A stretch of DNA of 64,000 nt from an uncultured virus (IMG/VR IMGVR_UViG_3300045738_001030) (taxonomy: Duplodnaviria; Heunggongvirae; Uroviricota; Caudoviricetes): the IMG/VR virus record IMGVR_UViG_3300045738_001030. One strand, written 5' to 3'. The number at the start of each line of letters is the position of its first letter. Positions within the stretch are counted from its first letter, which is position 1. This document shows, one piece after another, positions 4,108 through 51,936 of the stretch. The position numbers and the translations under genes are program-made. The notes beneath the pieces are model-generated. The model did not search any database, was not told the origin of the DNA, and was given only the letters and a program-made list of their open reading frames with translations.

Positions 4108-4118
4108 CATGGAGATAA

Positions 4119-5508: not shown

Positions 5509-5515
5509 ATGAGCT

Positions 5516-8500
5516 ATGAATATTAATATTCTTAGCGGCTCACCAACCTCTCTGCTCACGAATAATCCTGCTATCGTTCCTGAGCCCGAAAAAGAAGATC
5601 CCCGGTCATTTGGGGATATAAATGCGACACGTCGCAATATCTACAATCGTGTGTTGGAGGCAGCGGTTGGAGTCGAACCTGTTTCGAATGCGCAGTACAC
5701 ATTAGGGCTGCGGGACGTTCATTATCTAGACTCCGACTACGTCACGATAAAAGACCAGAAGAAGGCCATTTTGTCTGGCGAGTCACGTGGTCGTCGCCTG
5801 CGTGGTACGTGGGAACTGACAGACAATATTACGGGAGATGTTGTTGACCGTAAGAAGTCTGTTTTGATGACCGTACCACATCTCACAGGGCGTGGGACGT
5901 ATATTCATCGGGGCAATGAATATACTCTTCGGAACCAGCAACGTTTACGTTCTGGAGTATTTACGCGTATTAAAGACAACGGAGAAATTGAAGCTCATGC
6001 GAATGTTATGCCGGGTAAAGGACTTTCGCATCGCTATTTTCTTGATCCTGAGAAAGGTGTCTTTTACATACGAGCAGGACAAGCCAAGATTACCCTCATG
6101 CCGTTGCTCAAGATGATGGGAGCTACTCCAAAACAGTTGCAAGATGCGTGGGGATCGGAGATTTACTCCGCCAATTACCCGGCGGATGAAGCGTCCGCAT
6201 ATAAAAAGCTTGAAGCCAAGTTTTTAAGCGTCAAGGAACGTGAAAACGAGGAACTTTCGACACGTGAAAAACTCATTGCCAAGTTTGCCAACATGTCACT
6301 TGACCCCGAGGTGACCAGACGAACGCTGGGTACGCCGTATGAAGGTTTGAACTTGGATGCGATTCTAGACATCACAAAAAAACTTATCAGTGTATCTCGC
6401 GGTGAAGGTTCTGTAGATGATAGAGATGCATTGTCATTTCAGCGTGTGATGGGGCCGGAGGATTTATTTGCTGAGCGCGTGGCCAGAGATTATGGGGGTG
6501 CTCGTCGGAATATCTTATGGAAGGCTACGGGGAAAGGTAACCTAAAAAGCACTCCTTCTTCTGCTTTAAAGGCGCAAATAGAGGCTGCTTTGTTGGGATC
6601 GGGCTTGGGACAAGCATTAGAGGAGATTAATCCTGCGGAAATTTATGACAAGGCGTATTCCATTAGCCGTATGGGCGAAGGCGGTATTCCTAGCTTAGAC
6701 GCAGTCCCCGAGGAAGCTCGTAGCGTGCAGCCAAGTCATATGGGATTTATTGATCCTGTGCGCACGCCTGAATCTGCAAAGGTGGGTGTTGATCTTTACT
6801 TAGCACGCAATGTTCGCAAAGGACGTGATGGCAAGATTTATACGCAATTCATGAATCCTAAGACAGGTAGCAAGGTTTGGCGGTCTCCACAAGATATCGC
6901 AGATTTAGTTGTGGGATTTCCGGATTCGATGGATAGGCGTGGTACTCGTGCTCCCGCTATGTCGGGCGGTAAGATGGTGTGGGCAAGAAAGAAAGATATT
7001 GACCTTGTGTTGCCTGATTTTGAGGAAGCATTTAGTCCCCTTTCCAATGTCATTCCGATGAAGAGTATGATCAAGGGAGGGCGTCTTGTCATGGGTAGTC
7101 GTATGCTCACGCAGGCACTTCCCTTGGTGGGTGCAGAAGCTCCGCTAGTTCAATCAGCTATTCCCGGTACTAATGGACGTCGTAGTTATGAACAGGAATA
7201 CAGTAATCGGATGGGAAGTCGATTCGCTTCTAAGCCCGGCAAAGTATTGAAGGTAGATGACGCTGGTATCACTGTTAAATATATTGATGGTGAGACAGAG
7301 ACACTTGAACTGTATAATAACTTTCCGTTTAACAGGAAAACTTTTATTCACCAAACCCCGACACTGGGTCATGGGGATGTATTTGACAAAGGAGAGTTGT
7401 TAGCACGTTCTAACTTTACTGATGCAACAGGCACGATGGCTCTGGGTTTGAATGCTCGGACAGCATATGTATCTTGGCAAGGAAAGAATTTTGAGGATGC
7501 CATCGTAATTTCGGAAAGCTTTGCTAAGCGGTTAAAGTCAGAACATATGTACCAACACGATCTAGAGGTCGATGACAAGACTAAGATCGGAAAGAAGAAC
7601 TATATTAGCTTGTTCCCCGGCAAGTATGATAAGGCTGCGTTGTCCAAGTTAGACGAAAATGGGGTTATAGAGCCCGGAACTACCGTTGAGTATGGAGATC
7701 CTCTCGTCTTGGCTGTGGGTAGACGAGAAACGGCTTATAATAAAGTCCACAGGAAAGGACAGGCTGGTCATGCAGACGCAAGTATCTTATGGGATCATCA
7801 CGATCCCGGGGTTGTTACCGATGTTGAGTTGGGGAAGAAGGGGCCGGTTGTCGTCGTTAAAAGCTACAGCGACATGCAAGTTGGAGATAAGCTCTCGGGA
7901 CGTTATGGAGATAAAGGCATCGTTGCTGATATCATCTCAGATGACCAAATGCCGCACGATCAAGACGGTAAGCCCTTTGAAGTTCTCCTCAGCCCCCTTG
8001 GAATAATCACGCGTACTAACCCTGCGCAAATGGCGGAGCTTTATCTCGGTAAAATTGCCGAGAAGCGTGGGGAACCTATAAAGATCCAAGATTTTGATAC
8101 GTCGAAAGACATGTCTCAGTGGGTTTATGACTGGCTACGTCGTGAGGGGCTGTCCGACTTAGACGATATTTACGATCCTACTCATGATCGTAAGATTACT
8201 CAGATTGCAACGGGTAATAGATTTTTTATGAAACTGCACCACACTGCCGAGTCTAAAGGGCAGGCGAGAGGTGCGGGGGCATATTCTGCTGAGGGGGCCC
8301 CCGCAAAGGGAGGCGCTTCCGGTTCTAAGAGAATGGCTCTTCTTGATACTAATGCTTTGTTGTCTCACGGGGCTACAGAAACTTTACAGGATGTGGGGGC
8401 AATACGTGGTCAGCGTAATGAGAATTACTGGCTCCAGTTTATGTCCGGGGTCAATCCAAGTAACCCTAAAGTTCCCATGGTCTACAGGAAGTTTTTGAAT

Positions 8501-9940
8501 CAACTCCGTGCGGCTGGTGTTAATGTCAAGAGAGAGGGTACTCAAACTCATATCATGGCTCTAACAGACAAGGATGTTAACCAGTTGGCGGGTACCAGAA
8601 ACTTGGTGAACGCTAGTGGGGTTGATTGGAATAAAGGACTTGAGCCAATTCGGGGCGGCCTTTTTGATCCGGCTATGACTGGCGGACACAATGGTGATCG
8701 TTGGACAGCGATTAAATTTGCTGAGCCAATGCCTAATCCTGTTATGGAAGAGCCTATTCGACGTCTGTTAGGAATTACGCAAAAAGACTTTCAGGATGTT
8801 ATTGCGGGTAGTCAGGAGTTAACCGGGTTTGGGTCAGGCCCGAAAGCTATTAGTAAGGCCCTTTCTTCTATTAACATAGATAAAGCATTAGCTCAGACGC
8901 GTGCTGTTATCAAGATGGGTAAGAGTACGGAGCGGGATCAGGCTATCCGGAAACTGGGTTACTTGAAAAGTGCCAAGAGATTAGGCATTGAGCCCAAAGA
9001 TTGGATACTAAAACGTGCCCCTGTTCTACCTCCGTCATTTCGTCCTGTTAATATGATGAGTAGCGGTGTACCGCTTATTAACGACGCGAATTATCTTTAC
9101 AAGGAGTTGTTTGAGGCCAATAAGAACCTTACAAGTATGCAGGAGTTAGTCGGAGATGACGTAGGAGAGGAGCGTCTGGCGGTCTACAACGCATTCAAAG
9201 CGGTGACAGGTCTCGGAGACCCCATCAGTCAAAAGTCGCAGGAGCGGGGCATACGGGGTATTCTAAAGGACGTATTTGGTACAAGCCCCAAGTTTGGGAC
9301 GGTACAGCGTAAGCTTATCTCCACTACAGTGGATAATGTGGGGCGTGCGGTCATTTCGCCTAATCCCAATTTGGACATGGATAGCGTGGGATTACCGGAG
9401 GATAAAGCGTTTGACGTCTATCAAAAGTTCATCGTTCGTCGGCTGAAACGTAAAGGAATGTCAATTCGTCAGGCGATGCAGCATATTCGGGACAGATCGG
9501 AACTTGCCAGAGAGACTTTGCTATCGGAAATGGAGCATCGTCCCGTTATCATTAATCGTGCCCCTGTTTTGCACAAATTTGGTATTATGGCTTTCAGGCC
9601 GCAACTCACAAAAGGAGATACTTTGCAGGTGTCGCCTTTGATTGTTAGCGGGTTTGGTGCTGACTTTGACGGGGATGCGATGAATTATCATGTTCCCACT
9701 ACGGAGGGAGCACGAAAAGAAGCATTTGAGAGGTTACTTCCAAGCAGGAATTTATTGAGCTTAGCTGATTTTAAGCGTCCTATGCATGTTCCTAGCAACG
9801 AGTATGTGGGCGGGTTGTGGCACGCCACGAAATCAAAAAGCAAACGACCAACGAAGATTTTTAATACCATGGCTGACATGAAAGCCGCATATGCTAGTGG
9901 GGATATTTCATTAGATGACCGGGTTCAGATTTTAAACTAA
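5516..9940 (+). CDS. rpoBC: DNA-directed RNA polymerase: full beta subunit fused to N-terminal half of beta'
   Basis: Co-linear beta motifs (GTYIHRGNE, SHMGFIDPVRTPES, MGSRMLTQA, GKNFEDAIVIS, GDKLSGRYGDKG, MKLHH) then beta' motifs (GGLFD, PVLPPSFRP, GRAVI, NRAPVLH, catalytic GADFDGD at 9656-9676). Confidence 0.97.
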   Translation: MNINILSGSPTSLLTNNPAIVPEPEKEDPRSFGDINATRRNIYNRVLEAAVGVEPVSNAQYTLGLRDVHYLDSDYVTIKDQKKAILSGESRGRRLRGTWELTDNITGDVVDRKKSVLMTVPHLTGRGTYIHRGNEYTLRNQQRLRSGVFTRIKDNGEIEAHANVMPGKGLSHRYFLDPEKGVFYIRAGQAKITLMPLLKMMGATPKQLQDAWGSEIYSANYPADEASAYKKLEAKFLSVKERENEELSTREKLIAKFANMSLDPEVTRRTLGTPYEGLNLDAILDITKKLISVSRGEGSVDDRDALSFQRVMGPEDLFAERVARDYGGARRNILWKATGKGNLKSTPSSALKAQIEAALLGSGLGQALEEINPAEIYDKAYSISRMGEGGIPSLDAVPEEARSVQPSHMGFIDPVRTPESAKVGVDLYLARNVRKGRDGKIYTQFMNPKTGSKVWRSPQDIADLVVGFPDSMDRRGTRAPAMSGGKMVWARKKDIDLVLPDFEEAFSPLSNVIPMKSMIKGGRLVMGSRMLTQALPLVGAEAPLVQSAIPGTNGRRSYEQEYSNRMGSRFASKPGKVLKVDDAGITVKYIDGETETLELYNNFPFNRKTFIHQTPTLGHGDVFDKGELLARSNFTDATGTMALGLNARTAYVSWQGKNFEDAIVISESFAKRLKSEHMYQHDLEVDDKTKIGKKNYISLFPGKYDKAALSKLDENGVIEPGTTVEYGDPLVLAVGRRETAYNKVHRKGQAGHADASILWDHHDPGVVTDVELGKKGPVVVVKSYSDMQVGDKLSGRYGDKGIVADIISDDQMPHDQDGKPFEVLLSPLGIITRTNPAQMAELYLGKIAEKRGEPIKIQDFDTSKDMSQWVYDWLRREGLSDLDDIYDPTHDRKITQIATGNRFFMKLHHTAESKGQARGAGAYSAEGAPAKGGASGSKRMALLDTNALLSHGATETLQDVGAIRGQRNENYWLQFMSGVNPSNPKVPMVYRKFLNQLRAAGVNVKREGTQTHIMALTDKDVNQLAGTRNLVNASGVDWNKGLEPIRGGLFDPAMTGGHNGDRWTAIKFAEPMPNPVMEEPIRRLLGITQKDFQDVIAGSQELTGFGSGPKAISKALSSINIDKALAQTRAVIKMGKSTERDQAIRKLGYLKSAKRLGIEPKDWILKRAPVLPPSFRPVNMMSSGVPLINDANYLYKELFEANKNLTSMQELVGDDVGEERLAVYNAFKAVTGLGDPISQKSQERGIRGILKDVFGTSPKFGTVQRKLISTTVDNVGRAVISPNPNLDMDSVGLPEDKAFDVYQKFIVRRLKRKGMSIRQAMQHIRDRSELARETLLSEMEHRPVIINRAPVLHKFGIMAFRPQLTKGDTLQVSPLIVSGFGADFDGDAMNYHVPTTEGARKEAFERLLPSRNLLSLADFKRPMHVPSNEYVGGLWHATKSKSKRPTKIFNTMADMKAAYASGDISLDDRVQILN

Positions 9941-9955
9941 TCGGAGTACGTGAAA

Positions 9956-10714
9956 ATGTCATACGGAACTATTAATCCGGAACTTTTGGGTTTAGCAAAA
10001 CAGAATCTTGCCAAGGCTGCTGACGATGAGAAAGCGGCATTTGTTCAAGCGGGTGATCCTATGATGGACCCGATGGCTGCCCAAGGGGGCGGTCCCCCCA
10101 TGGACCCGATGATGGGTGGTGGTGGTCCTCCCATGGACCCGATGATGGGTGGTGGTGGTGGTCCTCCTATGCCCGGCGGTCCCCCCATGGACCCAATGAT
10201 GGGCGGTGCTCCTCCCATGGACCCCATGGCTGCTCTTCAACCCATGATCGAACAGGCTGTTCAGGCTGCTATGGCCTCTCAGGGCGGCGGCATGGGCGGT
10301 GATGGCGGCCAGATTAAACCCAAGATCGACGTTAATATCGAGATCATGCAGATCAAGAAGATCTTGGCTAAGATTTCTGACGCTTTAGGTATTCAGATAC
10401 CTGCTGCTGACATGGTTGCTACTCCAGAAGACTTGACCGCGATGGCTCAGGGTAATTCTGCTGGTGCTGGTGCTTTAGAGGGCGGAGGAGGCCCGAGTGC
10501 TATTAGTCCTCCGTCGCCGATTGATCCTATGGGAGCGGCAATGCCCGGTGCTCCGGGTGGTGGTGCTCCGGGTGGAGCACCGAAGCAAGCAGCTTGGGAG
10601 AATGGCTCAGCCGACGCGGCAATTTCCAGTCAGGTTATTACAGATAGCTTGCAGTCTACTGCAAATGTGGCTTCCGCTTGGTTGAGCATGCAATCAGCAA
10701 AGCAAGGAGGATAA
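9956..10714 (+). CDS. Gly/Pro/Met-rich low-complexity protein, putative internal head protein
   Basis: GGAG RBS; GGPPMDPMM repeats; K-x-A motifs AKAA, EKAA, PKQA (GTG at 9950 is an alternative start). Confidence 0.7.
   Translation: MSYGTINPELLGLAKQNLAKAADDEKAAFVQAGDPMMDPMAAQGGGPPMDPMMGGGGPPMDPMMGGGGGPPMPGGPPMDPMMGGAPPMDPMAALQPMIEQAVQAAMASQGGGMGGDGGQIKPKIDVNIEIMQIKKILAKISDALGIQIPAADMVATPEDLTAMAQGNSAGAGALEGGGGPSAISPPSPIDPMGAAMPGAPGGGAPGGAPKQAAWENGSADAAISSQVITDSLQSTANVASAWLSMQSAKQGG
10064..10232 (+). repeat. Imperfect coding tandem repeat (GGPPMDPM)
   Basis: Five ATGGACCCnATG units with GGT/GGC runs. Confidence 0.8.
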
Positions 10715-10717
10715 CCA

Positions 10718-10939
10718 TTGCGACTCGAAATATTACCGGCAGGCATTGGCAGTAAGCCAATTATCTTAGAGGCGACGCAGGTTGTAGTTAAGGGGGCAAA
10801 TGGAACCCCGGTGCAACTTGCAGCAGAACAAAGTCCCTCTAGTGTTTTATTGTTGTCCAACGTGGATGATGATGATTTTAATGAGGCGTTAAGGCAAATT
10901 GGGTATGACATTACCGTAATTTGTCAGGACCTAGAATAA
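10718..10939 (+). CDS. Small hypothetical protein
   Basis: AGGAGG RBS before a TTG start; fills the gap between neighbours. Confidence 0.65.
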   Translation: MRLEILPAGIGSKPIILEATQVVVKGANGTPVQLAAEQSPSSVLLLSNVDDDDFNEALRQIGYDITVICQDLE

Positions 10940-10947
10940 AATGAGGT

Positions 10948-11553
10948 GTGGTGATGACAGGTAGAGATCTATCCGCCGATAGAAAATACTATGCGTCTGG
11001 GCAGGACTCGGCACTTCAACTGGGAGTAGCTTCTTCTCCGGCTGCGCCCTCGCTTAAAACTACTACGGGTACTACTGATTCTATATCGGACGTGTCTGAT
11101 ATTTCTCGTGTGCTCGATAGTGTATGTGACCTTATTTCTACCGGAGTCACGGAAATACATGTTCCTGTCATGAGTGATTTATCACAAAAAGCTCGGGCGA
11201 ACCTTGATTTACGTGTTGGCCGTGGGGAGTTGACTACGGATCAGATAGCTGGGGTTCGTCTTGTGCTTCTTGAGCCTGTGCCTCCTGAGGAGTCTGAAGA
11301 GGAAGAATTTGAAGAAGAAAATACTGAAGCAGAGTTTGAAGATACAGACGATGTAGTGGAAGAAGCAGAGGAAGAGGAAGAGGAAGAGGAAGAGGAAGAG
11401 GAAGAGGAAGAGGAAGAGGAAGAGGAAGAGGAAGAGGAAGAGGTAGAAGACGCGACTACATCGGATGAGCTTTCAGATGCGTTAAATAGTGATGATACCC
11501 CGTCAATTGCAAGCCTGTTTGGTGCAACGGATGACGATGACGGCGACGATTAA
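10948..11553 (+). CDS. Protein with long acidic (poly-Glu) tail
   Basis: About 110-aa N-domain followed by an Asp/Glu-rich tail including an uninterrupted poly-Glu run. Confidence 0.75.
   Translation: MVMTGRDLSADRKYYASGQDSALQLGVASSPAAPSLKTTTGTTDSISDVSDISRVLDSVCDLISTGVTEIHVPVMSDLSQKARANLDLRVGRGELTTDQIAGVRLVLLEPVPPEESEEEEFEEENTEAEFEDTDDVVEEAEEEEEEEEEEEEEEEEEEEEEEEEEVEDATTSDELSDALNSDDTPSIASLFGATDDDDGDD
11368..11442 (+). repeat. Perfect (GAGGAA)n microsatellite, 12.5 units, encoding poly-Glu
   Basis: Strictly alternating GAG GAA codons over 75 nt. Confidence 0.92.
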
Positions 11554-11566
11554 ATTCTGGAATTTA
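11551..11566. promoter_or_regulatory. Palindromic intergenic element TAAATTC-TG-GAATTTA (copy 2)
   Basis: Identical to 3271-3286; lies 13 nt before the start of the beta' C-terminal gene. Confidence 0.55.
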
Positions 11567-11579
11567 GCGGGTAAGCAGG

Positions 11580-13466
11580 ATGCGAAGCGCTACCGTAGGA
11601 CAATTTCTTGTTAATGAAACGCTCCCTAAGGAATTGCGGGATTATGAGCGTATTCTTGACAAGAAAGGTATGGTTGCGTTACTGCAAGAGGTAGCGGAAA
11701 ATCATCCTGAGGAATATCGGGAGATTTCTTTTGCCTTGAATAATATTGGGCGTCAAGGTGCGCAGGAAAGCGGGAGCTTTTCTTTCGGATTGCGTCATCT
11801 TAAAACATCAAAAGCCGCAAAAGACGCAAGAAAACGTATTCAAGATCGTCTTACGAAGCTTCTAAGTGACTCTAGTTTGGATGATGCAGCTCTCTCTGAT
11901 GCTATTGTGCTTGCTGTTGGCAAGGAGATGAAGCCCCAGCAAGAGGCTATTTTACAAGAAGCCCTTGCCGAGGAAAATCCATTAGCGTTTCAGGCAACTT
12001 CTGGTGCTCGTGGTAATCCCATGAATCTTGCTAGCTTGTTGGGGAGTGACTTGCTTTATGCGGGTCACCGGGATCAGCCTTTACCTATTCCGATACTGCG
12101 TAGTTATTCGGAGGGACTTTCTCCTACGGAATACTGGGCTAGTTCGTATGGCGCACGCAAAGGAATTATGGCGGCGAAGTTTGCAACGCAGGATGCCGGA
12201 TTCCTTTCCAAACAATTAAATCAAGTGGCGCATCGTCTTGTTGTCACAGATGATGATTACCAGACGGCGCAGCGCCAGCTTAAACGTGGCGTTCCTGTGG
12301 ACACAGACGATCTTGATAACGAAGGTGCGCTGTTGGCTATGGATACGGGGCCTTACAAGAAAAACACTATTATCACTCCCAAGATTAGGAAGCATTTGAA
12401 ACGTCTTGGTAAAAAGAGAATTTTAATAAGATCTCCTATGGTAGGTGGTTCTCCGGCTGGCGGAGTCTATGCCAAGGATGTGGGAGTTCGTGAGCGGGGT
12501 AAACTTCCGGGACTTGGCGAGCAGGTAGGTCTTCAGGCTGCTCAAGCTTTAAGTGAGCCTCTAAGTCAGGCTCAGTTATCTGCCAAGCATTCGGGCGGTG
12601 TTGCCGGTGAAGAAGAGGCTGTGGGTGGTTTTAAATACATTAATCAACTTATTCAGGTTCCCAAGAAATTCAAAGGCGGTGCGGCTCATACTACGGTAGA
12701 CGGCACTGTCCAACGTATTGAGGAAGCTCCTGCCGGGGGTGATTACGTCACAATTGACGAAGTTCCTCATTACGTCGGCGAGGGCTACGACTTGAAAGTT
12801 AAAAAGGGCGACAAAGTCGAGGCTGGGGACGTTATTAGCGAGGGGTTCCCCAATCCCGCAATTATCACCAAATACAAAGGAGTCGGCGAGGGTCGCCGGT
12901 ATTTCGTAAGTGCTTACAGAGAGGCTATGGAATCCGCAGGATTGTCGCCACATCGAAGAAATATTGAATTATTGTCGCGGGGTCTTATAAACCATGTTCG
13001 TTTGACTGAGGAATATGGTGATAATGTGCCTGACGATGTAATTCCTTACTCTACTTTAGAGCATAGGTGGAAGCCGAGACCGGGAGCGAGAACGTTAACG
13101 CCAAAGAAGGCGATTGGTAAATATCTGGAACGTCCAGTTTTGCATTACACAATTGGAACTAAGGTACGTCCTTCAATGTTGAGGGATTTTCAGGACTTTG
13201 AAATCAGTGATGTGAACGTTCACGACGACCCACCTCCTTTTGAGCCGGAAATGATCAGAGGGATGTATAGTCTTCAGCATGATCCGGATTGGATGACGAG
13301 AATGTACGGTTCCGGCCTAAAGAAGAGCTTGCTGGAGGGCGCTAGGCGAGGATCTACTAGCGAGGAACGGGGAACGAGTTTTGTTCCTAGTATTTCTCGT
13401 AGTGTCGATTTCGGGAAGATTCCGGGGGGTTTGGTGAAGTCTCCGGAGGAGGTTTATGATGGGTGA
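11580..13466 (+). CDS. rpoC: DNA-directed RNA polymerase beta' C-terminal half (bridge helix, trigger loop)
   Basis: ATVGQFLVN (=TTVGRA), SGARGN, SYSEGLSPTEYWASSYGARKG, AGFLSKQLNQVA (bridge helix), AAQALSEPLSQAQLSAKHSGG (trigger loop His), HRRNIELLSR. Confidence 0.95.
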   Translation: MRSATVGQFLVNETLPKELRDYERILDKKGMVALLQEVAENHPEEYREISFALNNIGRQGAQESGSFSFGLRHLKTSKAAKDARKRIQDRLTKLLSDSSLDDAALSDAIVLAVGKEMKPQQEAILQEALAEENPLAFQATSGARGNPMNLASLLGSDLLYAGHRDQPLPIPILRSYSEGLSPTEYWASSYGARKGIMAAKFATQDAGFLSKQLNQVAHRLVVTDDDYQTAQRQLKRGVPVDTDDLDNEGALLAMDTGPYKKNTIITPKIRKHLKRLGKKRILIRSPMVGGSPAGGVYAKDVGVRERGKLPGLGEQVGLQAAQALSEPLSQAQLSAKHSGGVAGEEEAVGGFKYINQLIQVPKKFKGGAAHTTVDGTVQRIEEAPAGGDYVTIDEVPHYVGEGYDLKVKKGDKVEAGDVISEGFPNPAIITKYKGVGEGRRYFVSAYREAMESAGLSPHRRNIELLSRGLINHVRLTEEYGDNVPDDVIPYSTLEHRWKPRPGARTLTPKKAIGKYLERPVLHYTIGTKVRPSMLRDFQDFEISDVNVHDDPPPFEPEMIRGMYSLQHDPDWMTRMYGSGLKKSLLEGARRGSTSEERGTSFVPSISRSVDFGKIPGGLVKSPEEVYDG

Positions 13467-16400
13467 CCAGAATTATGAGCTTTTTCGGTCTGCTCCTCGT
13501 AGTAAGACGGCGCAACAGCAGGGCGGACTGTTAAGTTCATTTTTAGGTGATTCCTACAAGGGTGGGAATGTCTGGGATACTAAATTAGGTAAACAATTTT
13601 TGCCTATGATGGGTCCTCTGACGGCTCAAAATCCTGCTCTGGGCGGTGGTCTTTTAGCACTGGGTATGGGGCCAAAAAATTGGCAAACGTTGATGTCGCC
13701 CGGAGGTTCTGGTTCCGGTCGGATCGGGGGATTTTCGAGTTCTCAATATAAACCGGGAACGTCATTGGCTTCTTATGGGACGCCTCAGCAGCCAACACCT
13801 CAGCAGCCAGTGCCCCAGCCAGCACTTCCACGACCAACGTCACCGCAGCAGTCTCCTATGACGCGGGCTCAGGTACCAACGCCAAATGCTGCAATGTCGA
13901 TTCCTCCGTATTCTGTGCCCAGAGCATCTACTGCTCAACCTATGACTCAGTTGGACATGGTGCAGGCTGTTACTCCTCGCTCGGGTATATTTGGACGGCG
14001 CACGCAGATGCAGGGCCAGTCGCCGAGAGTTCGTGCGATTGATATAGGTCGCCAGCAGGCCGCAACGGGTCAACGTCGCACACCACTTCGTAACATAGGT
14101 CAAGCACGTCAGCAAAATGTTTTTCAGAACACGACTCGACGGGATCTTCGTCCACAACAACAAGCAATGCGACAAATGAATAGAGCCAGTCGCCCGGGGT
14201 TATTTGGTCGCCGGAAAGCTGGTTCTGTGTTGGAAAAGTATGGCTTCGTCATCTCTCCAGCCGCAGTCGACCCTGCAAATTTCATGCTTGAGCAGCCCTC
14301 AGCGCCCGCCGAGCCCAAACCCCTCGCCTATGCCCAGCTGCCTGAAGATCTGCCTGCTGAGCGTCCCATCGATGTCGTGTCCGAGTCTCCCCTCTCCGAG
14401 TCTTCCCTCGTGACTCCGCCACCGCCGCCGAAGAAACTTACTGCCGAGGAATTGGAACGTAACAAGAGGACGCAGGAGATCCAGACAAATCGTTACCTTA
14501 ACCCTAACGCTGTTCCGGGCGAGGGAGAGGGGAACTACAAAGCCCTTAGTGACGCTTATTTTAGGGCGATACAGCTGGAGCCGAATAAACTTCAAGAGGC
14601 GCTTCAAGCCCAGCGGCAGCGACGGCGACAAGAACCTCCTGAGTATATGACTGATCCTCGGGAAAGGGATTTATTCCAAATAGGCGAAGAACTGTATGGT
14701 ACTCTGCCGGACCCGGAGGAGCGGGAACACTATGACATGCTGAGGAAGATTCAGCCCGAGTATCCGCCTGATGCGGAGTGGGAAAAAGGTTACAAGCAGG
14801 ACAGCCTGACCCACGAATCTCCGGAGGTTCAACAGTGGTTGCAATATGAAAATCTTGTGAAGAATGTACAGACCGGATGGACTCAGGAGGGCTGGGAGGA
14901 ACTTGTAACGAAGGCGAGAAGAGAACACGCTCTTCGGATTGCCCGGACTGATCCTAAGTTGAGTCATCTCCTTCACAGCCCTAATTCTGCCGAGGGAATT
15001 GCTACGCTTAATTGGTTGGCACAGACCACAACCGGAGAAGAGCGTCAAAGCGGTGTCGGCCCGGACGGAAAGCCGACCGCGACAACGGAAGATTTTGTTA
15101 GATCAATGTTCCCCGCAGATGCCGAGGGGATGGCGTTTGAATGGAATGTCGGGAGACGTTATCGCAGTCAATATGTGGATGCAGAAGGTAGGTCACTCTT
15201 GCTCAGAGATGACAAGGGGGAGCCAATCCTAGATGACGATGGGCAACCGCAGCCAATTCTTGACGAGACGACAGGAGAGCCTCGACAGGGAGGTTGGATA
15301 ACTCCAAGAGGCGAGCTGGTTCAAGACATTCCAATGTCATCGAGGTCGGACATCTCGCCGGAGGATGTGGGGACATTGAGGGGCTATGATGACGAGGGGA
15401 AACCGATCTACTGGCAAGCGCACGATACTCGTAATCCGTTGGGTGGAGAAGCTCCGCTGTCTCACGATGACTTAATGCAGGCTTACATCGATGTTTATAG
15501 CGAAGTTCTAGACCCGTCACGTCTTACCGCAGATCAAAACTGGGTACCATGGGGTGGTCCAGTCCGCAGCGGTACAGGTAAAGAAGTGCAACAGACAACA
15601 ATGGATGCAGATCCACTTACTCCTTGGGTTGATATTGATAGTACGATGATTCCGTGGGGGATGTCGCTTTATAACGATATTAGGGAGCAGGGCATAAATC
15701 CTCGGAATTGGCGAGAGGGTACAAAGAGCATCTTAGATCCTAGTCGAGGTATGCCGACAGCGGGTGAGCCTTATGAAGGTGCTATTGATACGAAAAAAAG
15801 TTACGCTGGTGGCACTGGTAAGTGGGTGCCATTTACGGATGCCGAGGGAAATAAATCGATGATCTGGCAAGATCTGCGTAGTCATCCAAGTAATGAGCGG
15901 GCTCCCAACCCGGGCTGGGAGAAAATCCGAGAACGTAGCGTTAGATTCTTGGCGGGTCAAGATGTAACTAACTGGATGTTGCAGTCCCAAATGACAGGAG
16001 GAATAACGGGTATTAATCCCGGTAACATAGGGAGAAAAATATTTGGCCCCGTGGTCAATTACGGAGTGAAAGCGCCACTTAAAGAGGCGGCCAAACTGGG
16101 GTTGGCCCTCACAAAAGACGGCTGGAGGGTAGTTAATAACGTACTTTATCAATCGCAAATACACTCACGAGGCTTAGGTGCTTCCAATTTGCCGTCGGTA
16201 CCGCCGCGTGTGCCGCTGGCATCGCACGGCCCGCCCGGCAGCGCTGCTTGGAATACAACTGATTATGCGGACGATGCTTTTTCCAGAGTCAAAAATATAC
16301 CCCGTGCAGTTCAAGATGCGGTGAGAAACGCGAGTAATGTGTTTCGAACTAGCGAGGGGGCACTTTCGTGGGGTGCAACTGGGCGGTCAGCGATTAATGC

Positions 16401-18444
16401 CGTTAATGTTCCCAAGCAGGTTTTGAGTACGGCAAAGAATATTGCTAACGCTAAAGGATTTTGGGGAAAAACTAATGCACTCTTTATGGCCGCTGAAGGG
16501 GTGAAAGCCATACTTGGGGAACCGGCATTAGACGCTCATACTCTTTCTAAGGCAGTTACGCCGGAGGAAATCAGAAACTGGGCGTTTTCGGGCTCTCAGG
16601 GAACGTTTAGCAAAGATTACGGTAACGCCGCTCCGGTGTTCGGGAGTAAATATCTTGGCCAAACGTTGCAGGGAATGAGTTCGCCACAAGCTGCCTCTAG
16701 GGAACTGGTTGCTTCCGGGCTTGATTTCATAGGAATGGGCTTGTTTAAGGCCGGGCTGATTAAAGATCCCCGGCTCGGTCGCAAGGTTTCTGATCCTAGT
16801 AAACCCGGAATGAGGATAGGGGCGAGCGAGCATATTCCATATATACCATCGCTTTTTGATGTCCCCCGCTGGCTCCATGGGTGGAGGCGGACAGTCCCAG
16901 ATCTCTATGATCCGCTCAGCCTTCCGGCGGGTAAAAAAGCGTCGTGGAAGAATTGGAAATCATATGCCCCGTGGGAGTGGTTTGATAAGGTGGATTTCGG
17001 GCAAACGATGCCTGAAAATATAACTCCCAAAGATGCGACTGAGTGGAGGACACATTTCGATAAGGAAGTAGCCTTAGTTAGATCAAACATCAAGGGCCTC
17101 GATTCAATGCGAGGTAGCGACGGTAAATTTATCATCGACAATGCGGAAGTCGATGATGAGATGCTAAGGGAAGTATTGCGAATACGAATGGCCAATGATG
17201 CTAACATTGGTGTTCCTTACGATCAGCTGTCCCCCGAACACAGAGAGGTCTTTGATCAGTACGTCCAAATTCGGCACAATCAAATAATGGGTGATGACGT
17301 TCGACGGGCAGCTATGCAGGATATGTTCAATATGCCTGAGATGCAAGAAGGACGGGAGTTATTCAGAACAGAGATGCAGTCGGTAGTCGAGTCTCAATAC
17401 AAGCATTTTCAGAACGAGTTAGGGAAGTTGCCACAACGAGCAGCGGACAAATCAGATCCAACGGCTACTATGAGATATAGTCACCCGATGATTTTGAGAG
17501 TGCGAAAGGCGGCGGAAACAGCTAATACGGAATCCTCTAAACTCGGTAAGCAAATTGTGGCAATGAGACGACATGACCTGATCCAAGACGGTAAGTGGAC
17601 AGGGGTGATGCAAAATAAGATCAATGAATTGCAACGTCAGCGAGGTGCCGCTCTGGGTAGAGTCGCAATGGCAAACAAGATAAGCGAGCTTTATCACGAT
17701 AACATGAGCTTCATGCCAAACTGGCTTGCTCGTGCGTACCAACCCAGCGGCATGTCGGATGCAGGCTCGTTTGCAGCCTCGAATCTAATAACTAGTAGAG
17801 GTGATATGCGTGAGGACATGGCGCAATACGGCAAAGTGACGTCAACCGCATATCAGGGGCAACGAGATTACAATCCGCGCGATAGAACAATCACTATGGA
17901 AGATATAAGTAGCGCCACGTACGCCCGTAATTTACTTTTGGACGATGGCGGCGGCACGGTGGGAGTGGGCCTTCTTGAGGAATACAAGAATAGTATTTAT
18001 AGCGGCACTATAGAAGACGTGAGGCGAGAGACGAATAATTGGGGTAAACAGGTAGGTGGAACCAAGTATCCAGAGTACAAGAGAGCTATGACGCGACAAG
18101 AAGCTCATGATCGTGGCATCCTCGGGTCAGAGGATACTTGGCCGGGGATAAATATGTTCCCCGACGAGATTGATGAAGTCATCGCAGTAAAAGAGAGGGA
18201 ATGGCATAGGGTAAAGGCTGACTTCCAGAGGCGAATTAATGACGCGCAGGACACTATAGCCGTGATTCCTGAGAAACGGCAGCGGTTGCAGCTTTACAAT
18301 GAGTTGAGGGGTAAACTGGAACTTCTTAGGGATATCGGAGGAGGTTCGGGCGGTTTGCCCCTGAAGCCCGGAGATACTTTTGATGAGCGAAATAAGAGAG
18401 AGAAAGCGGATAGCAGGGCGTGGCATATGAAATACGGTAGATGA
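13456..18444 (+). CDS. Very large (1662 aa) Cys-free hypothetical protein, putative internal virion/ejection protein
   Basis: GGAGGAGG RBS; overlaps the beta'-C stop; SKTA near N-terminus; Pro/Gln-rich N-region; helical C-region; no recognisable enzyme motif. Confidence 0.75.
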   Translation: MMGDQNYELFRSAPRSKTAQQQGGLLSSFLGDSYKGGNVWDTKLGKQFLPMMGPLTAQNPALGGGLLALGMGPKNWQTLMSPGGSGSGRIGGFSSSQYKPGTSLASYGTPQQPTPQQPVPQPALPRPTSPQQSPMTRAQVPTPNAAMSIPPYSVPRASTAQPMTQLDMVQAVTPRSGIFGRRTQMQGQSPRVRAIDIGRQQAATGQRRTPLRNIGQARQQNVFQNTTRRDLRPQQQAMRQMNRASRPGLFGRRKAGSVLEKYGFVISPAAVDPANFMLEQPSAPAEPKPLAYAQLPEDLPAERPIDVVSESPLSESSLVTPPPPPKKLTAEELERNKRTQEIQTNRYLNPNAVPGEGEGNYKALSDAYFRAIQLEPNKLQEALQAQRQRRRQEPPEYMTDPRERDLFQIGEELYGTLPDPEEREHYDMLRKIQPEYPPDAEWEKGYKQDSLTHESPEVQQWLQYENLVKNVQTGWTQEGWEELVTKARREHALRIARTDPKLSHLLHSPNSAEGIATLNWLAQTTTGEERQSGVGPDGKPTATTEDFVRSMFPADAEGMAFEWNVGRRYRSQYVDAEGRSLLLRDDKGEPILDDDGQPQPILDETTGEPRQGGWITPRGELVQDIPMSSRSDISPEDVGTLRGYDDEGKPIYWQAHDTRNPLGGEAPLSHDDLMQAYIDVYSEVLDPSRLTADQNWVPWGGPVRSGTGKEVQQTTMDADPLTPWVDIDSTMIPWGMSLYNDIREQGINPRNWREGTKSILDPSRGMPTAGEPYEGAIDTKKSYAGGTGKWVPFTDAEGNKSMIWQDLRSHPSNERAPNPGWEKIRERSVRFLAGQDVTNWMLQSQMTGGITGINPGNIGRKIFGPVVNYGVKAPLKEAAKLGLALTKDGWRVVNNVLYQSQIHSRGLGASNLPSVPPRVPLASHGPPGSAAWNTTDYADDAFSRVKNIPRAVQDAVRNASNVFRTSEGALSWGATGRSAINAVNVPKQVLSTAKNIANAKGFWGKTNALFMAAEGVKAILGEPALDAHTLSKAVTPEEIRNWAFSGSQGTFSKDYGNAAPVFGSKYLGQTLQGMSSPQAASRELVASGLDFIGMGLFKAGLIKDPRLGRKVSDPSKPGMRIGASEHIPYIPSLFDVPRWLHGWRRTVPDLYDPLSLPAGKKASWKNWKSYAPWEWFDKVDFGQTMPENITPKDATEWRTHFDKEVALVRSNIKGLDSMRGSDGKFIIDNAEVDDEMLREVLRIRMANDANIGVPYDQLSPEHREVFDQYVQIRHNQIMGDDVRRAAMQDMFNMPEMQEGRELFRTEMQSVVESQYKHFQNELGKLPQRAADKSDPTATMRYSHPMILRVRKAAETANTESSKLGKQIVAMRRHDLIQDGKWTGVMQNKINELQRQRGAALGRVAMANKISELYHDNMSFMPNWLARAYQPSGMSDAGSFAASNLITSRGDMREDMAQYGKVTSTAYQGQRDYNPRDRTITMEDISSATYARNLLLDDGGGTVGVGLLEEYKNSIYSGTIEDVRRETNNWGKQVGGTKYPEYKRAMTRQEAHDRGILGSEDTWPGINMFPDEIDEVIAVKEREWHRVKADFQRRINDAQDTIAVIPEKRQRLQLYNELRGKLELLRDIGGGSGGLPLKPGDTFDERNKREKADSRAWHMKYGR

Positions 18445-18475
18445 TGTTGCTATTTAACCGGCTAAAGAGATAAAC

Positions 18476-18578: not shown

Positions 18579-21197
18579 ATGGACGGAACCATGTCGCAGG
18601 CAAACTACGAGAAAGTTTCTGGAACTGGAACTTTTTGGCGTTCATCTGCTAACCCAAATCAACTCAGATCGATTTTAAGGGATCAGGTAAACAACGGTCT
18701 TTTTAAATCCGCTAGCGCGCCTGTTGGCGGTGAAACTGAGTTTGAGCAGGCTTTTTCGAGCTTAGCTTATGCCTATTTGAAAGATAAGGCACCTCGTCTT
18801 CTTGATTATCTTGTTGGTTTCCAGCTTGTTGATCGAAACGACGATAATACTAAAGCCATGGGTGTCTTCGGATTTAGTGTTGGCGATCAGTGGCTTTATG
18901 CGCCCGTATTTTTTCTGAACGGGGATCTCAAGGGGCATGAACTTCTTTATCTCAAGAATAAAGATGCCTTTGTTCCGATGAAAGAAAACTGGGTTAACTA
19001 CTTAATCTCTCGTAAGCCGCATATTCTGGGTGAGCAGTCCGAGCAAGACACTTTTGAACTGGGTGGTCTTCAGCCGGATATCTATGGCTTGTCGATGTCT
19101 CCTTCGACGGGTTTTGGCAAGCGAGGATTCGATCAATGGTCTCGTCCGTTCCTGCCGATATACGCTGCGACTAAAGTTGCATCGGCGAAAAGCTTGTACA
19201 AGAGTGCGGGCCCCAATACCAAGTTGGAACTGGACGTTATTGTGGAAGCTCCTTATCAGGCGGCGCTGGCAGAGATTGCTGGCAATCTGGATTTGAACAG
19301 GATCATGCCTTCCAGTTTTGACATGTTGAAAGTGGCTTTTGATATTTCACAGAAATTCCCTGCTATCTTGGATGGGTTTACTCGTTTCTACGGGGATGAT
19401 TGTTTTGGACGTTGGGGAGCCCAATTAAAAGAGGCAGCTACTAAGGTTCAAAATAGCATTTTGCCCGCCAACCAATTCCCCGAGGCCCCACGTTACGCGA
19501 CGACCAAGTCTCTTATCCCAGAGACAGACAATCGTCCCGAACATCCGATTAAATCGGGTGCTTTGCGTATGTACGTGTATGAGCACGTAACTGTAAAGGG
19601 GGCACCAGAGCTTACAGATGATGAGCGTGAAAAGCTCATGGAGGACACTGTCCTTATCAAGGATCATCGTGAGGGGGAAGAAGTCAGCAAGGCGTATAAC
19701 ACACAGATGGATATGCGGCTGATTAATCCTGACGCTACTAATCTTTATCGCGTGCTTGAGAAGCCGGGCTCGTTTAGCAAGATGTTTGTTGCTGTTCATC
19801 CGCTTTCTAACCGTGGTGGCCAAGATATGGTTACGGCTGTTCGTCTAGATGGTGACGGTGATAAGGCATGGTTAAACAGTTACACAGGTAACGTATTTTC
19901 GGATCAGGAAGCCGAACGTGACGAGTGGGACGATTGGTTTGACGATCTCTCTGATTCAGATAGTCTTTCTGTGGGTGGCACATATATCGCTGTCACGCCT
20001 ACGCATAGTAGTACTGTCCCATTTGTAGTCAGAGAGAATTACGGGGACGGTCTCTATAAAGTAGATTTTGAAGACAGGCCGCATTATAACGAAACACGAG
20101 TTGTTCAACACATAAGGGCTCAAAACGGTGATTATTTAGGATCGTATGACCCTTCTCCAAGTCCGTATGGTGCGCTCTTACGTGTTAACGCAGAGGGCAA
20201 AGCAGGAACACGTCTTCGTGCTATTTCCGGTGAGCTACGTGTACCGGGAGTAGCTAAATTCCTAACTCTTAAGAAGCCTCGCAGCGAAGATAAGGGCAGC
20301 TTACTTATTCCTTGTTGTAACAGTGGAGAAGGAGACCACAGTAAGTCTGAGCCGATTCAATTTGGAAATATTGAAGATATCCAGACGCTTTTCTACGAGA
20401 AGACGGCACGGTTAAAGCTCTACAATGACGGACACGATGTTTCGCTTACGTCTACTGACGGAACGAAAAGACTTAGTCAGAAGGGAATGCTTATGTCGCT
20501 AATTGGCGACCATGGATTTTCCGAGAAGACAGCGCGTGAGATGATTAAAGAATCTATACGCAAAGAGGCTTCTGTTTATCGAGTTATTTATGCCCCGGGT
20601 TTTGGGGATAAGAAACACTTGGTCAAGTCCGCTGCTCCTAATGATAGTATTTTGGCGGGTGGTCCAAATGCGCCTCATGCTGACATGGGGCCTCAGTTCG
20701 GCATGGAAATGCTGGGAGGGCGTACGCCAGTTCAGACTCAGTACGCGGATGAGTCAGTTCAAGTTGTGCCGGAGCTGGAAGCGGGACGTACTGATCCAAA
20801 TGTGTGGGACCCGTGGCAGAATTACACGGCAGAAGACTTCCAAGGTGTCATGAATGTCGCGCAGAATGCTGCCGGTGAGGGGCAGAAGGAAGTTTTTGAT
20901 ACAGCGATGATTGGTACTTTGTTAAAGTCAGTACGCCAAGATTCTTTGGTAGACCGTCATCTTGGTGACTTAATGAAGGCTATTAATAGCTTGGGACGGA
21001 TTTTATTCCTGTTCTATTGGCATCAGGAAGAGTTTGAAGATCGTTATGGTAAATCGGATATGCCTGAATTGGAAGATAGTCTTCGGAACGCATTTGAGGC
21101 GTTAGGCGATGTGACTCTCTTCTTGAAAGAGAAAACTATTGAGTCTCCGTTCACTGAAAATGCTGAACTGAATCTCGAAGAATCTGCGAGGAATTAA
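18579..21197 (+). CDS. Large head-region protein with many K-x-A motifs (function unknown)
   Basis: 872 aa; FKSA, TKVA, YKSA, LKVA, LKEA, EKTA x2, RKEA, VKSA; first gene after the candidate promoter. Confidence 0.75.
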   Translation: MDGTMSQANYEKVSGTGTFWRSSANPNQLRSILRDQVNNGLFKSASAPVGGETEFEQAFSSLAYAYLKDKAPRLLDYLVGFQLVDRNDDNTKAMGVFGFSVGDQWLYAPVFFLNGDLKGHELLYLKNKDAFVPMKENWVNYLISRKPHILGEQSEQDTFELGGLQPDIYGLSMSPSTGFGKRGFDQWSRPFLPIYAATKVASAKSLYKSAGPNTKLELDVIVEAPYQAALAEIAGNLDLNRIMPSSFDMLKVAFDISQKFPAILDGFTRFYGDDCFGRWGAQLKEAATKVQNSILPANQFPEAPRYATTKSLIPETDNRPEHPIKSGALRMYVYEHVTVKGAPELTDDEREKLMEDTVLIKDHREGEEVSKAYNTQMDMRLINPDATNLYRVLEKPGSFSKMFVAVHPLSNRGGQDMVTAVRLDGDGDKAWLNSYTGNVFSDQEAERDEWDDWFDDLSDSDSLSVGGTYIAVTPTHSSTVPFVVRENYGDGLYKVDFEDRPHYNETRVVQHIRAQNGDYLGSYDPSPSPYGALLRVNAEGKAGTRLRAISGELRVPGVAKFLTLKKPRSEDKGSLLIPCCNSGEGDHSKSEPIQFGNIEDIQTLFYEKTARLKLYNDGHDVSLTSTDGTKRLSQKGMLMSLIGDHGFSEKTAREMIKESIRKEASVYRVIYAPGFGDKKHLVKSAAPNDSILAGGPNAPHADMGPQFGMEMLGGRTPVQTQYADESVQVVPELEAGRTDPNVWDPWQNYTAEDFQGVMNVAQNAAGEGQKEVFDTAMIGTLLKSVRQDSLVDRHLGDLMKAINSLGRILFLFYWHQEEFEDRYGKSDMPELEDSLRNAFEALGDVTLFLKEKTIESPFTENAELNLEESARN

Positions 21198-50261: not shown

Positions 50262-51936
50262 AATAGGTCTTCCTAACGTAGCGCGAGTTCAGTTCTTTGC
50301 TAAAAAGCACTCTTCGTTGTGGCTTGAAGTAAATGGTAAAAAATATGCCATATCTCAGTACAGTTCTACGTTTGCAGTAAACGAAATACCTTCGGCAACA
50401 TGTGTATTAGCGACAGGGGAAAAAATAAACAAAAAGGAGAAAGATAAGTTCAATCCTGCGGAAGACTTGGCAGCATCATTAAGCGGGGTGGGATTTGCTA
50501 AAGCGGAAGTAATCTTAAAATTCTCCGGCACGAAGACTGACTGGGAACCGCCGCTTGGCAGCAAGGGATGGCGGGGCACAAAGAAGATATTTGAAGGTTA
50601 TTACGCTGGAATTTCTTATCACCGGGTAGGAAACAAAATTCAGTGCACAGTTAGTTTGGTACACAAGTTAGTGGATTTGACATTCGGTTCTATCTTTTCC
50701 GCAAAAATGCACTCTTCAAACCCGGCATCTTTGATTAGACCGGCTACTGTAGCAGTACTGGGGGGCTGTGGGGGCTTCGCAGCTGGTGGTTCTTGGGCTA
50801 GCACAGCTTTCGTGGGTGATAAATTACCTCCGCCAGCCGCGAAAGGTGCCAATCAGGGACTTGGTGGTCGCCTGATTAAGATACTTAAATGCTTGGCTGA
50901 ATTAGACATTTTCGAACTACCCTGCGATGGGGACGGTCCCAGCGGCGTTCTTAATGGTGCGGTAATGGAAATACTAGAAAACATGGAATCTGAGACAGGT
51001 GAACTCAAACCGCCCCTTAATCAACCACCATTCGATACGTCTATTGCCTCTTACATAGGCAACAATCTGAACTCTTTCCGGGGAACTACCTTTTGGGATC
51101 TCTTGGTGGGGAAATGGTGTCCGGATTTCATGATCGCACTCTCTCCGTTGCCGGGTAAGACGGATGGCGGCAAGTTCAAGTGTTACGCAAATCTTATCCC
51201 CAACATACCAACGTATGACAAATTTTTCAAAACCCTCTACTTGAACGATTACGTCGAATTTCAAATGCGGGCTACGCAGGAAAATCCTTTGGCTGCTGTT
51301 GGTATTTTATCTCCGGTTGTCTCGGCTACGGGTGCGCAGTGGGTTACTGAACCAAAAAGCCCCCAAAGAGGTTACACGTGCATTGGTGGTCAGTACCCGA
51401 AGACACCTAAACCACAGGGGCAATATCTGGCTTTAGATGCTCCCGGCTGGTTTCAGCAGGTTCTAGAGAGCAGTAAGGGAGCTAGTGAAATAGCTAAGGG
51501 AGCTAATGAGATATCTAATCCCAATCAGAAGCAGAACAACCGCCCCACAAGTTACGAGGCATACAAAGCTCCGCTTACCGAGGCGATGAATAACATTGCG
51601 CATGTCTATTATGCGGCCAATGCTTTGCGAGGTCGTGTCGGTTCTTTCAGCAGCAAGTTACGTTTTGATATACCTCCCGGCGCTATGGTTACCTTAAAAA
51701 AGAGCCCCAAGGCGGCGGGAGGTGCCACTAAAGACTTACCCTCTGACTTTCACGTGCAAATTACGCGGGTGTCCTATAACATTAATTCAGATACCCCTGT
51801 AGCGAGAACAGAGTTTCAATGTGCAACTATTCGCACCCCAAGGGAACTTAAGGACAAAGATTATACGTTGAGTTCGCATCCTTTTGTTGATGGGACATGG
51901 AATGGTGATGAATTTGTAAAAGGATGGGGATTCTAA
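50254..51936 (+). CDS. Putative baseplate hub protein (gp27/gpD-like)
   Basis: FAVNEIPSATCVL, KIFEGYYAG, LRFDIPPGAMV, ITRVSYNI; typical position. Confidence 0.58.
   Translation: MAKIGLPNVARVQFFAKKHSSLWLEVNGKKYAISQYSSTFAVNEIPSATCVLATGEKINKKEKDKFNPAEDLAASLSGVGFAKAEVILKFSGTKTDWEPPLGSKGWRGTKKIFEGYYAGISYHRVGNKIQCTVSLVHKLVDLTFGSIFSAKMHSSNPASLIRPATVAVLGGCGGFAAGGSWASTAFVGDKLPPPAAKGANQGLGGRLIKILKCLAELDIFELPCDGDGPSGVLNGAVMEILENMESETGELKPPLNQPPFDTSIASYIGNNLNSFRGTTFWDLLVGKWCPDFMIALSPLPGKTDGGKFKCYANLIPNIPTYDKFFKTLYLNDYVEFQMRATQENPLAAVGILSPVVSATGAQWVTEPKSPQRGYTCIGGQYPKTPKPQGQYLALDAPGWFQQVLESSKGASEIAKGANEISNPNQKQNNRPTSYEAYKAPLTEAMNNIAHVYYAANALRGRVGSFSSKLRFDIPPGAMVTLKKSPKAAGGATKDLPSDFHVQITRVSYNINSDTPVARTEFQCATIRTPRELKDKDYTLSSHPFVDGTWNGDEFVKGWGF

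Follow-up and report, generated by a model that had tools for sequence, protein, structure and literature searches.

The analyzed stretch (hereafter, the window) was 64,000 nucleotides (nt) of DNA from the uncultured marine Caudoviricetes virus IMGVR_UViG_3300045738_001030, a tailed-phage fragment with nearly all of its long open reading frames (ORFs) on the plus strand. It carried two genes for a bacterial-type multisubunit RNA polymerase (RNAP): (i) a long ORF at 5516..9940 (+), encoding a 1474-amino-acid (aa) chain in which an essentially complete beta was fused to the N-terminal catalytic part of beta' (beta'-N), and (ii) a short ORF at 11580..13466 (+), encoding a separate 628-aa chain that started at the equivalent of Escherichia coli beta' TTVGR (beta'-C). 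This layout was real and was kept across a very large family of phages, some of them in culture. Most likely, the two chains made up the oddly cut catalytic core of the phage's own sigma-directed RNAP, which was probably packaged in the virion.

The window proteins and the family profiles were aligned to rpoB and rpoC of E. coli K-12 as the reference. Pfam matches along the 1474-aa chain were Rpb2_3 (residues 366-431) and Rpb2_6 (585-924, E 3e-50), followed in the beta' part by Rpb1_1 (1157-1210, below the cut-off) and Rpb1_2 (1339-1404, E 7e-25), and the 628-aa chain matched Rpb1_5 (residues 179-363, E 2e-18). The beta module comprised residues 1-1008 (5516..8539, +): family-profile positions 52-1008 aligned in four segments to E. 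coli beta 51-1337 (of 1342), with E. coli beta 225-419 and 933-1049 having no counterpart in the profile, and fusion residues 776-1007 matched E. coli beta 1045-1340 of 1342. The conserved barrel lysine motif GDKLSGRYGDKG at 7883-7918 aligned to E. coli beta 1060-1080, and the beta C-terminal peptide VPMVYRKFLNQLRAAGVNV, picked out in a preliminary description made from the sequence alone, corresponded to fusion residues 986-1004. The beta'-N module comprised residues 1009-1474 (8540..9937, +) and displayed the clamp helices, the lid/rudder region, and the catalytic barrel in BLASTP, profile, and Foldseek comparisons, with fusion residues 1086-1472 matching E. coli beta' 150-550 by BLASTP. The catalytic motif GADFDGDAM was located at residues 1381-1389 (9656..9682, +), and the chain ended at about E. 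coli beta' 552, some 90 residues past GADFDGD.

The 628-aa chain took up beta' at about E. coli position 569, with about 16 loop residues missing between the two chains; its profile position 4 fell on E. coli beta' 571 (DTTVGR), and the profile aligned to E. coli beta' 571-952 and 1153-1286, the jump from 952 to 1153 corresponding to the absence of the large E. coli trigger-loop insertion. In the rpoC_TIGR model, the fusion reached position 533 and the 628-aa chain covered 549-1050. The bridge-helix region (12111..12248, +; residues 178-223) aligned to E. coli beta' 765-810, and the first arm of the trigger loop (12516..12608, +; residues 311-343) to E. coli beta' 910-946; the positions of these elements come from the alignments, and their names are those that we take to apply. 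The core elements of a bacterial-type RNAP, namely the beta lysine motif, the beta' DFDGD aspartates, the bridge helix, and the trigger loop, were thus kept in these alignments. The preliminary description had proposed a beta fused to beta' through DFDGD, with beta' resuming at TTVGR on a second chain and about 2100 aa in total; Pfam domain mapping and the E. coli alignments confirmed this division, and the two chains together had 2102 aa.

The junction GVNVKREGTQTHIMAL (8516..8563, +) was the exact join, and the reading frame ran through it without a stop, as had been described for about 8516-8563. Beta' IMALTDKD, placed on E. coli IKIALASPD, stood directly after the beta C-terminal GVNV, and since the two termini abutted in the alignment, there was no linker. 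In an AlphaFold model of fusion residues 901-1275, the join was modeled as two consecutive strands (protein residues 1002-1007 and 1010-1015, numbered 102-107 and 110-115 in the model); the block values of the predicted local distance difference test (pLDDT) at the join were 74-83, the model was confident everywhere after the join, and its best Foldseek matches in PDB were bacterial beta'/gamma chains (E ~1e-11).

The same join and the same chain end recurred far beyond the window. A tblastn high-scoring segment pair (HSP) crossed the join in 19/19 related loci (17/17 from IMG/VR, plus Salmonella phage Arash and Vibrio phage D69). An exhaustive search was performed with the beta'-N part alone, and among the best 150 representatives of clusters at 50% identity (all E <= 1e-123), 147 had an HSP over the join, the other three being fragments that began after it, and 146 had a chain end within 15 residues of that in the window. 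When the join region was used in a word-indexed search, 120 clusters were listed (defined at 90% identity; 60-100% identical to the window), among which PF00623 was found in 120/120 and PF00562 in all but two; most of these proteins were of 1448-1505 aa, and they came from four source collections and from contigs of up to ~235 kb. Many of the best 150 fusion representatives were much longer, up to 3350 aa, and several contained intein or LAGLIDADG domains. The suggestion that metagenomic lineages could hold relatives was therefore borne out, the family counting no fewer than 150 clusters at 50% identity. With extreme hidden Markov model E-values and the recurrence of join and end in independent data, the match to RNAP was far beyond chance.

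These data left a negligible probability that the long ORF was a mis-assembly or a frame error joining separate rpoB-like and rpoC-like genes, which the preliminary description had named as a danger to its reading. Logan contigs of the probable source run covered the join (8486-8755) without differences; those of the runs from three other studies did not reach 8486-8755, so the read test of the join was not an independent one, and this counted for the artefact. However, the join was in frame in the 19 loci from other samples, in all of the best 150 representatives that included it, and in the genomes of the isolated phages Arash and D69, and the peptide coverage of the Arash fusion protein gp206 was 100% in the available text of PMC10585845. 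As a separate observation, inserts of 1-2.4 kb, inteins, or homing endonuclease genes were present inside the fusion or beta'-C genes of loci L008, L009, L010, L017/L018, and L019 and of Vibrio phages D148 and D181; both RNAP genes in the window were uninterrupted.

The enzyme was of bacterial type, as originally proposed: NCBIfam bacterial rpoB and rpoC models gave E 2.5e-80 and 3.3e-59, compared with 4e-26 and 2.3e-20 for archaeal B and A', respectively. The top NCBIfam models for the fusion ORF were those of the fused rpoBC of Helicobacter and Wolbachia (NF007172 and NF011417; E 2.6e-101 and 1.4e-87), in which beta and beta' likewise lie head to tail in one chain. In these cellular proteins, beta' is present in full (the models have 2890 and 2839 positions), whereas the phage chain stopped at about beta' 552; it scored 339.5 bits against a cut-off of 5372, ended at model position 1940 of 2890, and did not belong to this class. 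Cellular fused rpoBC enzymes presumably retain alpha, omega, and the zinc sites.

The cut within beta' resembled that of cyanobacteria and plastids (gamma plus beta'; TIGR02387/TIGR02388), in which beta' is likewise cut after the catalytic barrel, a few tens of residues or less from the phage cut. The cyanobacterial cut was slightly downstream, as the preliminary description had stated: the fusion chain ended at about position 552-557 of the 619-626-position gamma models, gamma ran about 65 model positions past the phage chain end, and the start of the phage beta'-C preceded that of the cyanobacterial beta'' model by about 13 positions. Cyanobacterial beta forms a chain of its own (8syi_C and 8syi_D), whereas the phage beta was fused; with this fusion and a cut about 13-65 model positions upstream, the window enzyme fell outside the cyanobacterial/plastid type as well.

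Three groups of phage RNAPs were also compared. The phiKZ/AR9-type RNAPs, as defined in the available texts of PMC7598289 and PMC7824862, (i) are also phage-encoded, lack alpha and omega, and share with cyanobacteria the position of the beta' cut past the barrel (PMC7598289); (ii) have beta in two or three chains with nothing fused, whereas beta in the window was whole and fused; and (iii) comprise two enzyme sets (virion and non-virion) with no recognizable sigma, whereas the window family had one RNAP set in 5/5 relatives and sigma-like ORFs. The window enzyme was accordingly placed outside this class. In crAss-like phi14:2 gp66 and Thermus phage P23-45 RNAP, as far as the available sources describe them, both barrels are on one chain of a virion-delivered enzyme, and the P23-45 enzyme is fused to the tape measure protein, as beta'-C in relatives of the window is also fused to another protein part; these RNAPs escape cellular beta/beta' models in the available text of PMC7481178, whereas the window chains matched bacterial models at E 1e-50 to 1e-100.

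The RNAPs of the mReC clade and of Kleczkowskaviridae, according to the parts of the sources at hand, are likewise bacterial-type beta/beta' genes in tailed phages of 60-300 kb. That the window enzyme was a member of the mReC clade (Weinheimer and Aylward 2020), and hence already described, was improbable. The clade consists of tailed phages of aquatic and other metagenomes with deeply branching beta/beta' genes in the available text of PMC7481178, and the mReC and fused-RNAP lineages could be related. However, in the 43/43 metagenomic-phage rows examined of supplementary file 5 (part 11 of 15), beta (999-1487 aa) and beta' (887-1391 aa) were always two separate, unsplit proteins, whereas both matches in the window were on one protein, beta'-C had 628 aa, and the motif was GADFDGD. 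The mReC filter, as given in the portion of PMC7481178 available, requires a beta' match of >= 800 aa with NADxDGD, which GADFDGD would fail; in the main text available there, 'fused' and 'fusion' are used only for crAss-like phages; and none of the IMG sample numbers of six related loci occurred among the mReC RNAP contigs in the available part of the data. Rhizobium phage RHph_Y65 (Kleczkowskaviridae) had a whole beta' gene of 3384 nt, separate from beta. Moraphages (PMC12619734) were considered as a lineage for the window and rejected, as they had no RNAP genes.

The same two-gene layout was found in cultured phages, namely Salmonella phage Arash (OQ632216.1), with gp206 (1525 aa) and gp216 (606 aa), and Vibrio phages D69, D148, and D181, so the implication of the preliminary description that no sequenced, cultured phage had this architecture was not supported. 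Over their full lengths, gp206 and gp216 were 30% and 26% identical to the window chains (E 5e-50 for gp216 and the 628-aa chain); the window conformed to this Arash-type layout, defined by a beta-beta'N chain ending at about beta' 552, a separate beta'-C from TTVGR, and deletion of the N-terminal zinc element of beta', this deletion being shared by Arash, D69, and the window. Arash and D69 differed from the window in that they (i) kept the second zinc site, with one or two cysteines in the fusion and four in beta'-C, compared with none in the window; (ii) had the catalytic motif AADYDGD instead of GADFDGD; and (iii) had a different gene neighborhood around the RNAP genes. The genes of these cultured phages are annotated plainly as beta and beta', and no fusion is mentioned for Arash in the available text of PMC10585845. 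No published description of a phage beta-beta'N fusion with a separate beta'-C was found in a search that left bioRxiv supplements and most subscription journals outside. As far as we could find, the architecture is apparently undescribed in print; phage multisubunit RNAPs were already known and cultured members had been sequenced, and the window adds one family member plus an observation on the beta'-C tail (see below).

No match to the Pfam families of alpha and omega was found on the 44 window ORFs scanned. Neither PF01000 (alpha, 0/5) nor PF01192 (omega, 0/5) was present in five large related records, namely four IMG/VR contigs of 173-235 kb (CheckV 83-100% complete) and the complete Arash genome, while 14/14 control genomes were positive. 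Each of these five relatives, Arash included, had one Rpb2_6 match and hence one RNAP set, and the records of four of the five had Sigma70_r4 matches. In the window, a sigma-70-family-like ORF of 244 aa without cysteine (51924..52658, +) was a candidate specificity factor: it matched PHROG 351 (sigma factor, E 1.4e-7), its BLASTP match to the homologous Arash sigma gp10 had E 4e-12, and its Pfam matches to Sigma70_r3 (3.6e-5) and r4 (6.8e-4) were both below the cut-off. The clamp-helix region aligned to that of E. coli, and so did E. coli beta up to position 932, a portion that should include the flap.

The single Rpb2_6 set, the lack of alpha and omega matches, the Sigma70_r4 matches in relatives, and the sigma-like ORF in the window together led us to read the two chains as the only RNAP core of the phage, using phage sigma factors. 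Chain 1 would contribute a whole beta head to tail with the equivalent of beta' ~12-552, with both double-psi barrels, the DFDGD magnesium site, the clamp helices, and the flap; chain 2 would contribute beta' from ~569 onward, with the bridge helix, the trigger loop, and the C-terminal modules. The two chains may assemble into a core without alpha and omega, the covalent beta-beta' link may do some of the assembly work of alpha, and phage sigma-70-family factors would bring the core to promoters. The core would be packed in the virion, enter with the DNA for early transcription, and then be used throughout infection.

Neither of the two beta' zinc sites was retained in the alignments of the window chains. 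The N-terminal zinc-binding element of E. coli beta' was deleted at 8654..8719 (+), and it had no counterpart in the six sequences aligned (the window, three IMG/VR relatives, Arash, and D69). At the second site (12249..12485, +), all four cysteines were replaced, with E. coli DDCGTH and SCDT-DFGVCAHCYG pairing with DDDYQTA and MVGGSPAGGVYAKDVG of the window, respectively. Cysteine was absent from the whole of the two chains (0/2102 residues), compared with 0.73% over the 50 ORFs of the window, and 94/120 fusion homologues were also cysteine-free. The catalytic motif among 120 family members was NADFDGD in 78, GADFDGD in 37, GMDFDGD in 3, and NMDFDGD in 2; Gly in place of Asn458 of E. coli NADFDGD was thus seen in the window and in 40/120 members, with Ala at this position in Arash and D69.

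The loss of both zinc sites, the replacement of Asn458 by Gly, and the absence of alpha and omega would suit polymerase relics without transcription, for example structural components of the virion. Against this, the DFDGD core was kept in 120/120 family members, the beta lysine motif, bridge helix, and trigger loop were conserved across members only 26-30% identical, and the RNAP genes of relatives contained inteins and homing-endonuclease inserts, all of which made a relic highly improbable.

As to cysteine elsewhere in the window, its content was bimodal: 15/50 ORFs were cysteine-free, including giants of 1616 aa and 1662 aa, the sigma-like ORF, and an ORF with a weak major-head match, and the cysteine-free regions included 44115-48965, 22889-26150, 27676-29082, 30220-31164, and 51924-52658; 2-3.7% cysteine was found in the block 32122-36216 and in the last two ORFs of the window. 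This cysteine-rich block started with an ORF at 32122-33342, which had a family-2 glycosyltransferase domain plus a weak methyltransferase match.

The enzyme was probably packaged in the virion, an interpretation drawn from Arash proteomics, the cysteine-free chains, and the cysteine-free beta'-C tails of relatives. In mass spectrometry of Arash virions, according to the available text of PMC10585845, gp206 ranked first among the proteins detected (3516 spectra, 100% coverage, and 128 unique peptides), and 1210 spectra were assigned to gp216, 467 to sigma gp10, and 1148 to helicase gp217; the authors suggested that these proteins act as infection begins or, alternatively, that they are abundant proteins carried over. 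The RNAP genes of Arash sat among structural genes, with the portal gene two genes upstream. As a side observation, window 44115-55259 and Arash 8089-15058 (locus L022) displayed a similar gene order: a huge structural protein, a few small ORFs, sigma, small ORFs, and baseplate/structural genes.

The beta'-C ORF was extended to 1060-1390 aa in IMG/VR relatives L003-L007 and L019, and 120 clusters of longer beta'-C proteins were listed (P0390-P0509; 61-74% identity over essentially the whole 628 aa). The C-terminal tails of these 120 had a median length of 643.5 aa, and 105/120 were cysteine-free; they were Pro/Gln/Ser-rich and hypervariable, and some harbored acylphosphatase, P-loop kinase-like, DUF5661, or DUF4269 domains, small enzyme domains as are found in injected polyvalent proteins. 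The window beta'-C stopped where the tails of relatives began, and it was followed by a cysteine-free ORF of 1662 aa (13456..18444, +), whose first ~330 residues were Pro/Gln-rich. The start of this ORF overlapped the beta'-C stop by 11 nt (ATGATGGGTGA, with GGAGGAGG upstream), and contigs of runs from four studies spanned 13427-13600, with no indel listed there. The 1662-aa ORF had no Pfam or PHROG family, a pattern scan of metagenome and viral contig collections found no relatives, and BLAST found no similarity to the tails of the 120 longer beta'-C relatives at E <= 1e-3; it was equivalent to the fused tails of relatives by position and composition only.

A functional two-chain RNAP might instead stay out of the virion, be expressed early by the host polymerase, and serve middle and late genes only, like the non-virion enzymes of phiKZ-type phages, and we regard this as possible but not likely. 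It would agree with the carry-over offered by the Arash authors in the available text of PMC10585845, with the sigma-70-like hexamers in some intergenic regions of the window, such as TGTTATAAT at 18445-18578, and with the four cysteines kept in the packaged Arash beta'-C, which imply some other or further cause for the lack of cysteine in the window clade. It agrees poorly with the rank of gp206 in the Arash virion, with the place of the Arash RNAP genes among structural genes, and with the fusion of beta'-C in relatives to long cysteine-free tails with effector-like domains. Moreover, sigma-70-type promoters were not in excess in 4000-23999 (17, compared with 24.7 +/- 5.6 in shuffles); the promoter and terminator scan of that region as a whole gave no excess over shuffles, and no phage promoter was therefore definable.

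Several points weigh against the reading of the two chains as the core of a sigma-directed, virion-delivered enzyme. The evidence for packaging came from one phage, Arash, only 30% and 26% identical to the window chains, and its authors allow for co-purification of abundant enzymes (available text of PMC10585845). In Arash and D69, the second zinc site persists along with four cysteines in beta'-C, so freedom from cysteine is no rule of the packaged enzyme. The absence of alpha and omega was that of matches to Pfam models, which a diverged analogue would escape; the source record of the window was of 71,211 bp, compared with 173-235 kb for the relatives, and the count of a single RNAP set covered the relatives. 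The sigma-like ORF had no match above a curated cut-off, the NCBIfam sigma models being far below theirs, and a PDB sequence search with it was empty. Gly at the position of Asn458 is unusual for a cellular enzyme.

A broader proposal is put forward tentatively and is the less probable part of our interpretation. The two-chain enzyme may be the standard machine of a very large marine and freshwater phage group with genomes of ~170-235 kb, a minimal bacterial-type RNAP without alpha, omega, zinc, or cysteine in which the covalent link would replace alpha in assembly. It would be carried in the capsid and ejected into the host with beta'-C tethered to a hypervariable, disordered, 'polyvalent' effector tail, fused in most relatives and represented in the window by the translationally coupled 1662-aa ORF, and polymerase and anti-host effectors would enter as one unit.

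Three further ORFs lay between the two RNAP genes. The first (9950..10714, +) encoded a 254-aa companion without cysteine, composed of Pro/Met/Ala/Gly-rich repeats plus one helical block conserved in the consensus of its homologues; homologues stood between the two RNAP genes in 13/13 loci compared, and no Pfam domain was found in 187 database homologues. The second (10718..10939, +) encoded a 73-aa companion predicted to have five strands and one helix (AlphaFold pLDDT 86.9), and it adjoined the 254-aa family in 13/13 loci. Both companions were undetected in the Arash, D69, and L017 loci (best E 0.098 and 0.28) and were therefore taken as clade-specific rather than core subunits. Two candidate roles were considered and rejected: (i) an alpha-like platform for the 254-aa companion, which consisted mostly of low-complexity repeats with one helical block and no Pfam domain; and (ii) an omega-like subunit for the 73-aa companion, for which there was no Foldseek PDB match at E <= 0.001, no usable protein-atlas match, and no omega similarity. 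The third ORF (10948..11553, +; 201 aa) had homologues in 7/13 loci, all from closer relatives, and its sole Pfam match was below the cut-off. Farther downstream, an 872-aa ORF (18579..21197, +) had tblastn matches in 17/17 IMG/VR loci and weak ones in Vibrio phage D69; it had no Pfam or PHROG family, and its protein-atlas scores were all < 0.8. Within beta'-C, a 33-nt piece at 12633-12665 was the only part matched by contigs of three runs, and on either side of it these contigs continued into unrelated flanks common to all three, pointing to a short piece shared with another abundant sequence.

Besides the RNAP locus, the window harbored a ribonucleotide reductase fragment, a baseplate J-like protein, the weak major-head match, and the sigma-like ORF, and most of its ORFs had no family. 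The plus-strand array was interrupted by a 914-bp gap at 789-1702, within which lay the one minus-strand ORF of notable size, at 840-1397 (185 aa, without a PHROG family). Structures resembling intrinsic terminators, GC-rich hairpins with a T run behind them, were present in the intergenic regions 31165-31244, 32013-32121, 39111-39218, and 39681-39797, and TATAAT-like boxes at 18445-18578 and 33343-33410.

The fused gene is labeled 'beta' by annotation pipelines, which hides a family that is abundant in aquatic metagenomes. With two chains of together about 2100 residues and without alpha, omega, and zinc, the enzyme would be the simplest bacterial-type RNAP known, and its study could reveal what the cellular enzyme can do without and how an assembly platform can be replaced by a covalent beta-beta' link. 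Since Arash and Vibrio phages D69, D148, and D181 are in culture, biochemistry, structure, and infection experiments are feasible now. Should its delivery together with the DNA be real, the enzyme would represent a third independent route to host-independent early transcription beside the N4/crAss-type and phiKZ-type virion polymerases, and, unlike these, it would still use sigma.

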